64,000 nucleotides of DNA, from the NCBI GenBank assembly GCA_951804945.1, contig OX638153.1, positions 31,372,001 through 31,436,000 of the forward strand, read 5' to 3'. Shown piece by piece: positions 7,481 through 37,139 of the stretch. The notes under the pieces are model-generated. The model did not search any database. It was not told the origin of the DNA and saw only the letters and a list, made by a program, of their open reading frames with translations. The position numbers and the translations under genes are program-made. Numbering within the stretch: the first letter of the stretch is position 1; the number at the start of each line of letters is the position of its first letter. Source of the stretch: Podarcis cretensis. Lineage: Eukaryota.

Positions 7481-7626
7481 GGGCCAAATAGCTCAGTTGG
7501 TAGAGCATGGGACTCTTAATCTAAAGATCATGGGTTGGAGCCCCATACTGGGCAAAAGATTGCTGCATTGCAGAGGGTTGGACTAGATGACCCTCATGAT
7601 CCCTTCCAACTCTACAATTCTATGAA
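7481..7626 (+). mobile_element. tRNA-derived SINE with CR1-type tail
   Basis: TAGCTCAGTTGGTAGAGCATGGGACTCTTAATC head; CCCTTCCAACTCTACAATTCTATGA tail. Confidence 0.8.
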
Positions 7627-30248: not shown

Positions 30249-30886
30249 TAGCACTACTTTGGATCCAAGCCTTTGTGCCTCGTTCTGTGGTTGTGAGCAT
30301 TGGAGAAAATCTCAAGCTTCTCCACTTCCTGGCTGGTATTTTGCCCTTCATCTTCCACTAATAACACAAATAACCGGATCCCTGAACTGGAATTCTGTTG
30401 GACGCTGTCTAGACTCAAAGCTGGTTGCCTGGGACAATGGCATAAACCAAGGCACTGTGATCAAAAGTGATGTTTTAGGCACTATCAACACAGCCCTATA
30501 GGTGCCAGCTCTGAACCAAGCTCAGTGGGGCTTACTCACACAGGTAAGTGCACTTATCATTGCAGCCTATCTACATCTACATTTGACCTGGGAATGGAGT
30601 CTCATGTCCTGGGGAGGTGGGGAGGAGAAAACAACAACCCGGATCTGCAAGCTGTAAACAGAGGCCACAAATCCCTGTCAGTATGTTACCTAAATTATTT
30701 ATTGTCCAGAGGGTACAATAACTATCAAAAATTCATCGGCAATAATGTTCTACAACCTCAAACTGACAGTTCTGCTATTTTGAGTGTGTGCAGCCTTCCT
30801 GGGGTGTCAGATCTCAAAAGTTTGCTTCACAAAAAACACACACAGGGCATAAGCAGGATGACATGGAGACTTGAGGCCCTGCTTTC

Positions 30887-31199
30887 TGTTGATTTGTAGC
30901 ATCCAAGTGCACAGCGGAATGATGAGGAATACGTGCCAACATGCTCTGTATTGCTTTATTTACATTTCATAGCTGGTAGATTACAGAAAACCATCTTGTC
31001 TCTGCCGAAGCAGAAAAATGCATCCTCTCTCCTCTGAAGCACAGAGAGAATCACACTGAACAGTGAAAAACAGGAAACCAGTGTACGTCACATCCAGCCT
31101 CCCTTTCCCATGGGAAAACTCCAACAGTAACTCTGTGGAATGTAAACATTGTCTTGTGACAAGCCTTTCGCTGCACAGTGAAGAGAGCAGAAACCAACA
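30887..31199 (-). repeat. 3' LTR of the copia element
   Basis: 313 bp, preceded on the minus strand by the PPT; carries AATAAA (plus-strand tttatt, 30955-30960). Confidence 0.97.
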
Positions 31200-31213
31200 T
31201 CCTCCCCCTTTCT
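31200..31213 (-). promoter_or_regulatory. Polypurine tract
   Basis: Minus strand AGAAAGGGGGAGGA directly abuts the TG of the 3' LTR. Confidence 0.92.
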
Positions 31214-31246: not shown

Positions 31247-34200
31247 TCAGTACAAACCCAACTTCTGCACATAGGTACAGTGTTGATCCCTTGATACAAT
31301 CTTGGACAATACATCAGCAGGAATTTCATTACCTGGCATATAGGACACCGTTACGAGTCCCTTCTGAATACGTTCCCTAGCATGTTGCAACTTCAATTGC
31401 AAGTGCTTCGTGCTTTGCTTACAACCTTCAGAATTCAGCAAAGCCAAACATGCTTTGTTGTCCTGGTAAACCTGGATTGGACATTTGACAGGAATTTTCA
31501 TGTCTTTGCACAATTGTAACAACCATTCACAATCCTTAAGTGAATAAGACAATGCATTCAGTTCAGCTTCACAAGTACTTAAGCTAACTGTTGTTTGCTT
31601 CTTGCATGACCAATCAAATAGAGCCTGATTGTACATATAGCAAACTCCAGACGTGCTTTTCCTGTCTGTAGTGTCACTTCCAAAACTTGCATCTGCAAAT
31701 ATCTCAAGACCACCAGACTTCTGATTGTTAAATCTCAGTCTGTAATGCATAGTGCCTTTCAAATACCGCGCTACGCGTTTCAGAGCTTTCCAATCCTTAA
31801 CAGTAGGATTGTTGACTTGTCTGCTTAGCAAATTACAGCTAACAGCAATGTCTGGTCTTGAACATCTGGCAATGAAGTTTAGCTTGCCTAGCACACTTCT
31901 GTACAGTGTAGTGTCAGAAAATGCTTCTTCAGTGTCATCTACCTGATAACCTGTTGTCATCGGTGTGTCTACAGGGTTAGCATCCATCAGGTTTAGTTTG
32001 CTTAACACATCAGCAATTTTCTGTGACTGGTGTACTAGAATGTTACCATCTTGATCTCTTTCTATTTCCAGAGATAGGTAGTTGTTTACCTCACCAAGAT
32101 CTTTCATGTCAAAGTGTTCCTTCAGTTGAGCTAGGGCGTTATTGTACATTGTGACATCATCCCAAAAGAATAATAAATCATCAACATAAAACAAACAATA
32201 CAGTTTCTTTTGCCCCTCCTCTTTGACAAATACACATGGATCAGCTTTCCCTTGCTTAAAACCTAGAGAAAACAATACTTCAGTGAGTTTTGTGTGCCAA
32301 CACCGTGCACTTTGTTTGAGACCATAAAGGGATTTTTTCAGAGCACAAACAAATCCCTGTTTTACCTGTACGCCATCAGGTGGAAGCATATAAAGTGATT
32401 CATCTAGAGATCCGTACAGAAAAGCTGTATTCACATCGTGGTGACTAATGTGTAGATTCTCCTCTGCAGCTAGCTTAAGCATAAGTCTAATGCTCTCATA
32501 CCTCACTGTGGGTGAGTAGGTCTCGTGATAGTCTTCACCTGGTACCTGTGCAAAACCTCTGGCTACCAATCTGGCTTTGTGTCTGACTATCTTGCCATTT
32601 TGATCAGTCTTCGCTTTGAAGACCCATTTGCTTCCAAGCAGTTTCATTCCTGGAACTACTGGAACAAGTTCCCATGTTTTGTTCCTTTCCAAGGAATCAA
32701 GCTCAGCCTTCATGGCATTTAACCATGGCTCAGCTTCCTTTGAATCCAAATCCTGGATTTCTTGGAAACTTGAAGGTTCAAATACCTTCTTGGAGCTTTT
32801 AACAGCTGTTACTGCTATCTTGGCAAACTCATCAGCAAATCTCTTTGGAGGTCTGCCTTTTGTGGCTCTTTGTGACCTGCGAATTAGCCTTAGGTCTTCA
32901 ACACTTTCCTCTTCCTTCTTAGGAGAAAAGCGACCTATTGTGAACAATGGTTCCTCCAATTCTTGATCAGAGCTTTCAGAGGGTCGCATAGAGGCTTTCG
33001 CACTCTTGAAATCCTCTGAATCACCTGATTCAGTTTCAGACTCAGAATCAGAACTTTCATCAGTGGGTGTGGGTTGCTGCGGTTGCTTTTGACTATCCTC
33101 AGTCTCATCACTGTCATCAGGATAACATTGGAAAATTCCCACATTCTCCCCCCACTTGGCATTGTACTCAACACTTCTTGTGAGCTTAATTGTCTTAGAG
33201 TCAGTCATCCTTATTCTGTAAGAACCTTTCTCATAACCTAGAAAGATACCATGCAAACCACGCTTGTCTAACTTGGAGTTTTGTGGTGAGTGAACCCACA
33301 TGTCAGAACCAAAAATTCTCATGTGTTTGATGTATGGCTTCTTGCCAAACATCTTCTCATAGGGGGTACAACCAATCGCTGAAGATAACCTGCGATTATA
33401 ACTGTAAGTGAAACATGAGAGAGCTTCGGCCCAATAACTCTCTGGAAGATTGGCATCATGTAGCAAGGTTTTTAACCCTTGAAGTAATGTCTGATTTGCT
33501 CGTTCCGCAAGCCCATTCTGCCATGGCGAGCGAGGACTAGACAAATCGTGTTGAATTCCTTTCTCAGTCAGAAAAGCTTCAAACTGCTGAGAAGTGAATT
33601 CTCCCCCGCGATCTGTGAAAAGAATTTTTACCTTCTTACCTTGCACATTTTCCAACCAAGCACAGAATTCCTTGAACCTAGGAAAAGCCTCTGATTTCTG
33701 CTTGAGATTGTACACATGAATATACCTGGAAAACGCATCAATGAGAACCATGAAGTACCTATTTCCTCCCAAAGAGGGCGCTAGTGGTCCAACCAAATCA
33801 GCATGAACAATTTGGTATGGTTCTGTAGCTTGCCTACTAGACACCTTACCTTTCGCAGCCATTTTCACCTTGTTTGCTGCGCATGCCTTGCACTTCATGT
33901 GGTACCTGCAGGGTTTAATAGTCATACCTTCAACCAAGGCAGGCATTTTAGATACTGCCTCAAAACCCAAATGTCCAAATTTTCGATGAAAATCATGAAT
34001 ACATTCTGCATGCAAACATTTGTTAGAACCTGCAATGCAACAAGTGTCATCCTGCACAACATCATCATAATACAAAACATACAAACGATCAACATATTCA
34101 GCATACAATACATAATCATTTTTCTTTGTGATGATGCACCTTTTGTTCTTAAAGGAAACGTCAATGTTCCGCTCATTCATCTGTCCAACGCTGAGCAGAT

Positions 34201-35275
34201 TATGTTTGGCATCTGGAACATAAAGTACATTCTGTATCGATAAGTCCAAACTGTGAAGAACAACAGTTCCGTAGCCTTTACTGGGAATTGTGTGGTCATC
34301 CGCCTGGTGAATCGCACCTTCCTGCGGTGTAAAAGACACGAACAGTCGCTTATCGTTGCACATGTGATGGGTTGCCGCTGAATCAACAACGAAGAAAGAT
34401 CTAGACGTCTTCTGGACCTCTGCAACTTTCGGAGTGAAGCGTGAGACCATTGCTTTGGGCTGCGTTGTCCTGGACACCGGACCTTTGCCTCTGCTTTGGC
34501 CTTTTCCACGCGATGAGCTTTCGCTGCGCTGCTCTGTCTTGGCCCTGGGATATCTGCATTCCCTCTTCATATGGCCTAGACGTCCACAGGAGTAGCATTT
34601 CACTGCCTTCAAAGCTTTGGCGCCATCTGGTGGTTCCACTGCACTATGGGATGACGTCTGTGAAGACTCCCCCTTTCCCATGCAGCCAGCACCCCGGCGA
34701 TCTGCTTCATTTTGAATCACGGCAGTAACATAATCCACTGTCAGCTGAGCGGTAGGCTGTACAGCAATCTGAGTCGCAACAGACTCCCAACCTGAACCCA
34801 AAGATTGTAGTATCATGAAGGAATACACAGCCTCTGGAAAGTTGAGTCCTCTCTGTTGCAGCTCATGTCTCAGATTCTGCATCTCCATCAGATGTGTACG
34901 CACATCTCCACCTTCAGCAAGAGCCATATTATGCAGCTTGTTAAAATAAAACATAGTAGACCCAGCTTCTGTCCTCAAGTGTGCCTCCCTCAAAGCGTCC
35001 CAAATTTCTCTGGCTGAGGTCTTATCACGCAATAGACAGAGCTCTTCTGGGGATACTATCAATGTAAGAGTTCCCCTTGCTTTGGAATCTTTAGCTTTCC
35101 ATGCATCTGTAACTGGAGCTGGGGGGGTGTCTGTAATAACTTCAAACAGACCCTCTTTCCGCAGAATAGCCTCTGCATAGATAACCCAGTCCGTATAATT
35201 CTTCTTATTGAGCTTGGGAATCCCACAAGCATCCTGAAGGGCCACCATGACTCTGGCATTAGCCTTCTGCGTCAT
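31247..35275 (-). CDS. Copia gag-pol polyprotein (~1342 aa from first ATG)
   Basis: Gag LNKKNYTDW; CCHC knuckle CYSCGRLGHMKREC; protease DSAATHHM; HHCC (HRKFGH...CKAC); integrase D-D-E (HADLVGP, TDRGGEF, NGLAER); GIFLGY motif; RT KARLVARG, LYGLKQ, YVDD; RNase H ADASF, RKSTSG, EAE, QDN, ADVLSK. No stops or frameshifts. The ORF-track start at 35293 is a TTG; the first ATG is 35275. Confidence 0.97.
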   Translation of the reverse strand: MTQKANARVMVALQDACGIPKLNKKNYTDWVIYAEAILRKEGLFEVITDTPPAPVTDAWKAKDSKARGTLTLIVSPEELCLLRDKTSAREIWDALREAHLRTEAGSTMFYFNKLHNMALAEGGDVRTHLMEMQNLRHELQQRGLNFPEAVYSFMILQSLGSGWESVATQIAVQPTAQLTVDYVTAVIQNEADRRGAGCMGKGESSQTSSHSAVEPPDGAKALKAVKCYSCGRLGHMKRECRYPRAKTEQRSESSSRGKGQSRGKGPVSRTTQPKAMVSRFTPKVAEVQKTSRSFFVVDSAATHHMCNDKRLFVSFTPQEGAIHQADDHTIPSKGYGTVVLHSLDLSIQNVLYVPDAKHNLLSVGQMNERNIDVSFKNKRCIITKKNDYVLYAEYVDRLYVLYYDDVVQDDTCCIAGSNKCLHAECIHDFHRKFGHLGFEAVSKMPALVEGMTIKPCRYHMKCKACAANKVKMAAKGKVSSRQATEPYQIVHADLVGPLAPSLGGNRYFMVLIDAFSRYIHVYNLKQKSEAFPRFKEFCAWLENVQGKKVKILFTDRGGEFTSQQFEAFLTEKGIQHDLSSPRSPWQNGLAERANQTLLQGLKTLLHDANLPESYWAEALSCFTYSYNRRLSSAIGCTPYEKMFGKKPYIKHMRIFGSDMWVHSPQNSKLDKRGLHGIFLGYEKGSYRIRMTDSKTIKLTRSVEYNAKWGENVGIFQCYPDDSDETEDSQKQPQQPTPTDESSDSESETESGDSEDFKSAKASMRPSESSDQELEEPLFTIGRFSPKKEEESVEDLRLIRRSQRATKGRPPKRFADEFAKIAVTAVKSSKKVFEPSSFQEIQDLDSKEAEPWLNAMKAELDSLERNKTWELVPVVPGMKLLGSKWVFKAKTDQNGKIVRHKARLVARGFAQVPGEDYHETYSPTVRYESIRLMLKLAAEENLHISHHDVNTAFLYGSLDESLYMLPPDGVQVKQGFVCALKKSLYGLKQSARCWHTKLTEVLFSLGFKQGKADPCVFVKEEGQKKLYCLFYVDDLLFFWDDVTMYNNALAQLKEHFDMKDLGEVNNYLSLEIERDQDGNILVHQSQKIADVLSKLNLMDANPVDTPMTTGYQVDDTEEAFSDTTLYRSVLGKLNFIARCSRPDIAVSCNLLSRQVNNPTVKDWKALKRVARYLKGTMHYRLRFNNQKSGGLEIFADASFGSDTTDRKSTSGVCYMYNQALFDWSCKKQTTVSLSTCEAELNALSYSLKDCEWLLQLCKDMKIPVKCPIQVYQDNKACLALLNSEGCKQSTKHLQLKLQHARERIQKGLVTVSYMPGNEIPADVLSKIVSRDQHCTYVQKLGLY

Positions 35276-35654
35276 CTCTGCTGCTTTAAACAAGCTGCTT
35301 TATACAAGCTGCATCTCTGCTGCTTCAAGCCTTATTCCAAAGGCAAGTTCAAAACAGCTTTCTCTCTGCCCTAAATCATGCTGCGTCACTTCTGCAGCTG
35401 CTTCAGCCCTTTTAAAAGTTACTTTCGATTTCGCCAGCATAGCCATAGCCGCTGCCTGTTTCCGGCAAACGGACATAAAAGTTCAAAGTCCAGCCATAAA
35501 GCCATTAAATAGAAGCTGGCAGGCTGCCCGGAGCAGTAGCACATACCTCATCAATCATCTTGACGCGCAGATACCGTCCGATCCGTGCCTTTGCATTCCA
35601 TTGCATACCTTGCCGGCACTCCGAAGTCCATCCGTCACTTTGACTGCGTTGTTT

Positions 35655-35668
35655 CTGGGCCCATAACC
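35655..35668 (-). promoter_or_regulatory. Primer-binding site complementary to the anticodon arm of initiator tRNA-Met
   Basis: Minus strand GGTTATGGGCCCAG, 4 nt after the 5' LTR; plus strand CTGGGCCCATAACC is an internal segment of tRNAiMet including the CAU anticodon. Confidence 0.92.
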
Positions 35669-35672
35669 AAAA

Positions 35673-35985
35673 TGTTGATTTGTAGCATCCAAGTGCACAG
35701 CGGAATGATGAGGAATACGTGCCAACATGCTCTGTATTGCTTTATTTACATTTCATAGCTGGTAGATTACAGAAAACCATCTTGTCTCTGCCGAAGCAGA
35801 AAAATGCATCCTCTCTCCTCTGAAGCACAGAGAGAATCACACTGAACAGTGAAAAACAGGAAACCAGTGTACGTCACATCCAGCCTCCCTTTCCCATGGG
35901 AAAACTCCAACAGTAACTCTGTGGAATGTAAACATTGTCTTGTGACAAGCCTTTCGCTGCACAGTGAAGAGAGCAGAAACCAACA
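35673..35985 (-). repeat. 5' LTR of the copia element
   Basis: 313 bp, identical by eye to 30887-31199; TG...CA ends; adjacent to the PBS. Confidence 0.97.
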
Positions 35986-37139
35986 CTTTCATGTAGGAAA
36001 CGTGACACCAAACTACTGCTTGGAAGGGAGTGATTCGTTTATTTACAGCCCTCCTGACTTACGGCGTTTCCATGTGACCTCTTTATTTGGCATTCCTCCT
36101 CTGCAGGGAGACGAGAGGCTGTCTTTAATTCTGACCTGTTTGCAAGGATGTTAGATGACGTTATGTCAAAGCAGACATTACCAACACGATTTCCAGAACA
36201 TTTCCCCCCGTCACTTCCCTTAACACAAAAGTCCTGTCTTTTGGGGAGGTGGGTTTGTTGCTCAAGAGCTTCCCAATCAGCTATGATTGTAAACCTGAGT
36301 TTGGTAGTAGGAGATTGAAAGTGCCCTGAGGGTAAGGTTCTAACAATGACAGCTTATTGTATTTCACTGGGTCTGCCGAAATTTTAGAACTTCAGTAAAC
36401 ACTGCAAAGATGTCCAGCTTTGACCTGAAATGCAGTGTGCACATATGCAGGCAAACGGATGAGGCACACTCCAGTTGAAGGAGCACCCTAATGAGAAAAC
36501 ACTCCATGCCTCACCTTTGTTGCACGTTGGGTTTTCATCCCCACCCTTCAGTTAAAGGAAGATCACTCTGGGTCTTCTCTCTTCACATATGCAGTATAAT
36601 GCCTGAACAACAGCCATCTGCAGCTCCTCCAGAGCCATTAAGATTTAACACGTAATCTGACAATCAACGCCATTTTGCAAACACTTCATGGGCTGGCCTC
36701 ATGAATGGAGGACTGAGCGGCAAAATCGACTGCAGCACTTCAGAGTGTGGGTGAGAAGATGCTTAAAAAAATAAACACCTCCCTTCATTAAAAACGACAA
36801 CAACTGAACAACACAGCAGATAAAGGACCGAACTGGAGCTTTCCCCCATAATGTGGAAGTTTCCAATTTGTAGGCTTTCTTGTCAGTTTAATGCAGAAGG
36901 ACATTAAAAAGAAGATCCCCTCTACTTATGTTTATTTGTTTAACGAGATTGTCATGCCGATTAAATCAGCAGAACGTCTCTAAATGGTTTTACGTAAAGC
37001 AATAAGAAATATTCAATAAGATTACAAATAAAAATCAAACCTGGGAAACAAGTTGATCAAAATGTAAGCAGTTTTAAAACAAGCATATGTCCTAAAAGTA
37101 CATGTGGAAAAGTACATGTCTGGGTAGGCTTTGCCAAAC

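Follow-up and report, generated by a model that had tools for sequence, protein, structure and literature searches.

The window (the whole 64-kb stretch of DNA that was analysed) carries on its minus strand an intact Ty1/copia element of 5.1 kb. Its 5' LTR ends with CAACA at 35673 and is followed by TTTT (35672..35669) and then by GGTTATGGGCCCAG (35668..35655), a 14-mer that has no other match in the window. This junction raises the question of which primer starts reverse transcription of the element, and whether the choice of primer bears on silencing by the host. Half-tRNA priming has been known since 1986, and the sequence-only reading had assigned the element to this type. The features of the element (positions in the window) are:

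35986..35990, no strand: target-site duplication CTTTC on the 5' LTR side, identical to the 5-mer at 30882-30886
35673..35985, minus strand: 5' LTR, 313 nt, TG...CA, identical to the 3' LTR at 313/313 nt
35841..35853, minus strand: indel hotspot in the LTR and peak of its local variation, seen also in the alignment rows; putative U3/R border
35741..35746, minus strand: AATAAA, candidate poly(A) signal, present in 23/23 LTR rows displayed
35695..35708, minus strand: U5 motif found by duplex scan, with a potential pairing to tRNAiMet nt 10-20; possibly a second primer-binding site, possibly an integrase signal
35669..35672, minus strand: TTTT spacer between LTR and primer-binding site (PBS); hypervariable among family copies, with a length of 4-5 nt
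35655..35668, minus strand: PBS, perfect complement of host tRNAiMet nt 26-39; likewise perfect in 51/99 sampled family copies
31247..35275, minus strand: gag-pol, a single stop-free frame of 1342 aa from ATG, with Gag, zinc knuckle, protease, integrase and RT in this order
31200..31213, minus strand: polypurine tract adjoining the 3' LTR, as in 84/89 LTR pairs of the family
30887..31199, minus strand: 3' LTR, 313 nt, 313/313 match to the 5' LTR
30882..30886, no strand: target-site duplication CTTTC, directly at the terminal CA of the 3' LTR, without spacer

The LTR length is 313 nt, of which the repeat finder gave only 300. Pfam domains in gag-pol are Retrotran_gag_2 (34-193), zf-CCHC, Pol_BBD, rve (483-583) and RVT_2 (864-1106); the order is that of copia, with integrase ahead of RT and with copia Gag and RT. 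About 235 aa follow the RT, copia polyproteins span the full 860-1341 region, and the Pfam search gave no RNase H match. The TG...CA LTRs, the 5-bp duplication, the copia-type Gag and RT with integrase ahead of RT, and the polypurine tract place the element in Ty1/copia (Pseudoviridae). In the RT region the top match overall was 71% identical and the closest named relative came from an alligator lizard, with 59% identity across 51% of the query; no named reference element was among the 120 RT matches listed. Elsewhere in the window, at 7483-7554, ARAGORN reported a tRNA-Lys(CTT)-like sequence that appears degenerate, a pseudogene or SINE head.

Further copies of the family were analysed in two samples. 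Genome-wide, a pattern allowing altered sites detected 404 family junctions, and a slightly wider pattern detected 197 junctions with a perfect site. For the perfect-site sample 100 loci were fetched (98 of the first 100 listed and 2 from another listing), one wrong-side fetch and two other-family loci were dropped, and the window copy was added (n = 98). The unselected sample consists of all of the first 100 listed among the 404 junctions, less one other-family locus (n = 99). The two LTRs were identical in 32 of 89 pairs, and 40 of the 89 LTR-paired copies have a stop-free frame of at least 1300 aa; the family is therefore young, as had been said of the window element.

Several observations were made along the way. 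Family sequences were found in contigs of public runs (X1, X4, X7, X8, X9; query 35400-36000) from at least five organisms. The 5' leader after the PBS (35560-35654, with equivalents in L042-L256) is a mosaic of short blocks shuffled among lineages, which suggests frequent recombination. Locus L102 has a polypurine tract ahead of its 5' LTR, the arrangement of a tandem array with one shared LTR, and L217 has two inverted family LTR ends about 3.8 kb apart. The hotspot at 35841-35853 (5' LTR nt ~133-145) is a second hypervariable spot: young LTRs that are nearly identical elsewhere differ there by insertions of up to 10 nt, flanked by two short inverted motifs. It may mark the transcription start and the first strand transfer.

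The primer-binding site and the host initiator tRNA

The 14-mer occurs 653 times in the 1.51 Gb host genome, versus 15 occurrences of the reversed control. Of the first 30 places examined 16 belonged to the family of the window element, and the rest included other copia families; families sharing the site in this genome have RTs 36-80% identical to that of the window element. The 14-mer is the exact complement of nt 26-39, the anticodon arm, of 72-nt host tRNA-Met(CAT) genes, and all 11 loci in which the match extends into the anticodon stem are canonical genes of this kind. They have A1:U72, which we take to be a further hallmark of initiator tRNAs, as well as A54 and A60. The latter two are described as initiator hallmarks (PMC10275265). 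Among the 11 copies four have 1-4 base differences, all outside the anticodon arm, and the genes (L032-L034, L036-L040) are located on contigs C2 and C13 in clusters of mixed tRNA genes. The proposed pairing with the anticodon arm of tRNAiMet, of the copia/Ty5 type, is thus borne out, and it is very probable that the window element's family primes from a half-tRNA.

It had also been stated that the site has no TGG-initiated match to a tRNA 3' end. A TGG does exist at the junction, because the last base of the spacer is T and the site starts with GG, and the T is conserved (96/98 copies), as would fit conventional priming by a full-length host tRNA through its 3' CCA end. What stood was the second part of the statement: no lead from this TGG into any tRNA 3' end was found. 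When 16 distinct host tRNA genes were compared through their last 18 nt (3') with CCA added, the longest run pairing with the site was 5 bases, and runs in a different tRNA-Met gene and in other nearby tRNA genes did not exceed 7 nt. A T-loop-plus-site pattern had no exact match in the host genome and 43 one-mismatch matches (29 for the control), and ARAGORN detected no tRNA gene in the 10 loci fetched from these 43. The same site is preceded in other families by A, G or C before GG, and the captured sequence described below continues into tRNAiMet nt 25-10. Priming from the CCA end is, on these counts, highly improbable.

Junctions of other families show a further variation. In L163, L175, L176, L177 and L178 a G, which could pair with tRNA nt 40 or be a 1-nt spacer, stands between the LTR end and the same 14-mer; the complements run 22-32 nt, and those tested with Pfam were copia. 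The primer end or the spacer thus varies among families within one host.

Spacer, captured tRNA sequence and the U5 motif

The 4-nt TTTT spacer noted at first is true of the window copy and is not a fixed property of the family, in which the spacer is variable and, in all but one of 98 copies, 4 or 5 nt long. Its first base is T in 98/98 and its last base T in 96/98 copies, with a variable middle. Between copies with identical 25-nt flanks the spacer differed in 69/98 pairs (the pairs being non-independent) versus 9-12% for other windows, and among 20 disjoint close pairs it differed in 11, with 1.25 expected. A tree was built from flanking sequence, with spacer and PBS excluded; it is poorly resolved, and the family looks recombinant. 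Spacer length tracks this tree (7 changes versus 34.5 in shuffles) and also age: LTR pairs without mismatches were found in 29/47 copies with a four-base spacer versus 3/41 with a five-base spacer.

In 65 of the 82 copies that could be resolved the target duplication lies directly at the terminal CA (3 others have one mismatch in the duplication and 14 have no duplication; 16 further copies were unresolved); the right end thus normally loses the spacer. In two of the 14, L116 and L120, the downstream LTR end keeps its own 5-nt spacer and ends before the PBS. The spacer is thus normally absent from integrated 3' ends and kept in two aberrant copies, in agreement with the prediction that extra terminal bases are trimmed. 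Addition of intervening bases at cDNA ends and their clipping by integrase are standard (PMC2829016). Genome-wide, 1 of 213 young LTR ends had a spacer-like 4-mer without PBS and is a candidate untrimmed end; a search for LTR-to-LTR (circle-type) junctions gave 7 matches, none flanked by LTR on both sides. The spacer would then form, as DNA, the right terminus of the linear copy and be clipped before integration, and it would be templated yet often mutated, likely through errors at the template end in the second transfer.

Alternatively, the spacer could be the copy of an A-rich tail on the tRNA fragment, for example an A completing CCA followed by mixed tailing. Read on the primer strand, spacers start with A in 96/98 copies and are A-rich with G next (165 A, 55 G, 22 T and 3 C at the inner positions), as such a tail might be. 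Against this, non-T spacers recur by lineage (TTCCT in 14/98), spacer length is tree-like, as templated inheritance predicts, and copies with a bulged site (see below), expected to carry the parent's strand, also vary in spacer. A tail-versus-template test comparing spacer variation in perfect and bulged copies gave little signal within length classes and did not decide between the two. We consider the tail an unlikely source of the spacer.

A search for extended tRNA complement gave only two matches in the family. In L161 the complement runs 30 nt, with nt 25-10 captured, and then continues in inverted U3; in L162 it runs 27 nt (nt 25-13 captured) and is followed by a back-jump to U5, with the junction repeated. 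Both jumps fall at microhomology. It thus appears that RT reads the tRNA from nt 39 toward its 5' end, as expected of a primer made of the 5' part, and the capture of nt 25 to 13 or 10 supports the claim that the 5' part of the tRNA is the primer. Footprints of this kind would be left by a cut 5' fragment and equally by an uncut tRNA that primes internally. The case for capture rests on two family copies, and that for spacer retention on two. Copies of a sister family (RT 80% identical) have runs of 31 nt (L180) and 33 nt (L165) beside 14 nt (L172), and in other families extended tRNA complements are a regular feature. A half-tRNA-generating activity in lizard germ cells, which had also been proposed, we infer only from inherited young copies, and the nuclease may belong to the host or to the element; the word 'lizard' goes back to one named relative, the alligator lizard match.

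The U5 motif, found in at least 86/98 copies, lies within the LTR at 22-35 nt from its end and can pair with tRNA nt 10-20. It makes the best tRNA duplex of 506 element windows, and 6 of 2000 shuffles reach its score. It could also be read as an integrase-binding or structural signal with an incidental fit to the D-arm: its position is in the region of the Sirevirus 'integrase signals' (~21 bp; PMC2829016), a partial mirror image of it occurs at U3 nt 24-35, and a similar site was found in only 2 of 10 other elements tested and was absent in 8. On the other side, the duplex is specific for tRNAiMet (-28.3 to -30.7 versus -13.7 to -19.3 kcal/mol among 16 host tRNA genes), the commonest variant of the motif retains pairing via G:U, and two families with RT 36% and 46% identical have a similar site (0/500 and 8/500 shuffles). 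That the motif serves as a signal unrelated to the primer is a serious possibility, to which we give somewhat less than even chances. In the family of L166 (RT 46% identical) the spacer is T-rich and 5 nt long, and U5 contains a site able to pair with the 5' part of the tRNA.

These features can be arranged into a replication scheme. A cut 5' fragment of tRNAiMet would anneal at the PBS, perhaps aided by pairing of nt 10-20 with the U5 site, and RT would then copy the spacer and U5. Plus-strand strong-stop synthesis would enter the tRNA and could continue toward its 5' end, as the captured sequences suggest. After the second strand transfer the tRNA copy would be on one strand and the PBS of the parent on the other, and replication would segregate the two, as is suggested by the ratio of perfect and bulged sites (51:48) given in the next section. 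In summary, the element is a young Ty1/copia that is likely primed by a 5' tRNA fragment ending at nt 39, which is likely copied into one strand of each new DNA.

Perfect and bulged sites

Among the 99 unselected junctions the PBS is perfect in 51 and bulged in 48, in keeping with one half (binomial p 0.84). The bulged sites comprise loss of one G (18), an additional G (10), a G-to-C change (10), an additional C (7) and other changes (3). All changes fall within PBS positions 7-11, opposite the anticodon loop's 5' side and the stem next to it, and the predicted duplexes range from -16.8 to -24.0 kcal/mol, versus -27.8 kcal/mol for the perfect site. Altered sites were also found in 22/22 young LTR pairs missed by the perfect-site search. 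Perfect and bulged copies are of similar age (p 0.14): the ratios per age class are 20:22, 15:16 and, in the oldest class, which is skewed to perfect, 13:6. One 5'-leader lineage comprises 9 perfect copies and 9 with the one-G deletion, another lineage 6 perfect and 1 bulged. Two candidate explanations of the bulges were ruled out. Matches to variant host tRNAiMet genes were rejected by the 11/11 canonical genes (the tRNAiMet body was searched), and homopolymer assembly errors because several of the types are non-homopolymer, the types follow lineages and two of them are also present in contigs of independent public runs.

The distribution of the two states was compared with that of the bulge types. 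The nearest neighbour was perfect for 24.8 of 51 perfect and for 24 of 48 bulged copies, and the bulge type was the same in the nearest bulged copy for 23.3 of 48 copies versus 11.2 at random. On the tree, perfect versus bulged required 29 changes (33.3 in shuffles, with 80/1000 as low), which is no significant signal although not far from significance, and the biggest all-perfect clade had 4 members. Bulge type required 19 changes versus 26.5 in shuffles, with 0/1000 as low. Since bulge types are lineage-bound and perfect sites form no such clades, most productive parents were likely bulged; as the tree is weak and the family looks recombinant, this reading of the parents is inferential, and the missing perfect-site signal is weak taken alone. 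By arithmetic, equally productive perfect parents would bring the perfect share to about 97% after five rounds of primer copying. Inheritance of the primer from mostly bulged parents accordingly appears probable to us as the simplest reading of these distributions; copies with a perfect site would then likely spread poorly, and the window copy would be a tRNA-corrected daughter. Some perfect parents may have been active, as in the oldest class (13:6) and in the 6:1 lineage, and the split could derive from a limited number of master copies that were imperfect by chance.

The sequence-only reading had expected such a site to escape the 3'-tRF-based PBS silencing known from mammalian ERVs. The PBS indeed has no complementarity to the tRNAiMet 3' end, so that 3' tRNA fragments cannot pair with it, yet half of the family is bulged and the pattern is like that of ERVs, with mismatched sites common (48/99) and perfect sites scattered on the tree; the expected escape is not supported. 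The priming mode is itself unlikely to be an adaptation to vertebrate silencing, because it occurs in copia families with RT 36-46% identical and in non-vertebrate elements. Perfect sites seem to be disfavoured in the family. A reptile host might silence the anticodon-arm site, using tRNAiMet fragments (5' or internal) or a repressor that binds DNA, with the family surviving via bulged lineages, half of whose offspring would revert to the silenced form in each round; we regard this scenario as tentative, and host silencing as the cause of the split as rather doubtful.

The split may instead be unrelated to host control, with half-tRNA priming true and either the bulged duplex working better (in cleavage, initiation or primer removal) or the masters being bulged by chance. 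This explanation, whose chances we put only a little short of even, fits the confinement of the changes to positions 7-11 and the stability predicted for the bulged duplexes. It is opposed by the persistence of at least five bulge types across older (5-nt spacer) and younger (4-nt) lineages, which would be hard to obtain from chance masters, and by sister copia families that retain perfect or longer complements and so indicate that a perfect duplex is workable.

Comparison with known elements

In Drosophila copia and Ty5 the primer site directly adjoins the LTR, and to our knowledge direct work on half-tRNA priming covers one fly and one yeast element. The priming type is the same here, in a vertebrate host and with a variable spacer of 4-5 nt, half of the copies bulged and a candidate second site in U5; the likeness drawn here is one of priming mode. 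For these two elements the mode is established (PMC10275265, PMC5371799, PMC10886601, bioRxiv 10.1101/2025.04.25.647736). Half-tRNA primers have been described, as a type limited to Ty1/copia, in algal, moss, gymnosperm, other plant and fungal elements, including Osser, Bryco, Gymco-II and Bianca and, in rust fungi, Copia and Helenus (PMC6317226, PMC10886601); in the parts of these sources that we consulted they are known by sequence complementarity, and neither primer capture nor a perfect/bulged split is described.

Yeast Ty1 is of the copia superfamily, uses tRNAiMet and makes extra contacts with it (bipartite PBS, PMC5371799), as the candidate U5 site of the window family might. It uses the whole tRNA and primes from its 3' end; strict inheritance of the element's own PBS is stated for Ty1 and Ty3 (PMC7472051), whereas the window family has footprints of tRNA-copy inheritance. 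In the mouse ERVs ETn, MusD and IAP perfect sites occur beside common mismatched ones, with 50:50 inheritance of the primer, a pattern interpreted as pressure against a perfect PBS (PMC7472051). Those elements are retroviruses whose sites, 18 nt long, match tRNA 3' ends and are targeted by 3' fragments; here the element is a copia and the site that of an anticodon arm. A recently active squamate Copia is likewise known from corn snakes, with insertions in OCA2 and CLCN2 and 85 near-identical copies of 5832 bp (PMC11948899); the main text of that report does not contain the term 'primer binding'. No literature report of a vertebrate half-tRNA copia or of a variable LTR-PBS spacer was found, a weak negative given that subscription journals and Repbase were mostly uncovered. 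The half-tRNA mode is thus already known; the literature examined gave no example of it combined with inheritance as in retroviruses and a split like that of ERVs.

The roughly 400 junctions in one vertebrate genome, many of them very young, record accidents of replication: captured primer, untrimmed ends and a split of about 1:1. If the proposed reading is true, half-tRNA-primed copia elements inherit their primer as retroviruses do, unlike Ty1, and a site beyond the reach of 3' tRNA fragments is nonetheless under pressure. Were the host the source of that pressure, the trade-off of priming against silencing known from mouse retroviruses would have been arrived at independently, the primer, the element class and the silencing guide all being different.
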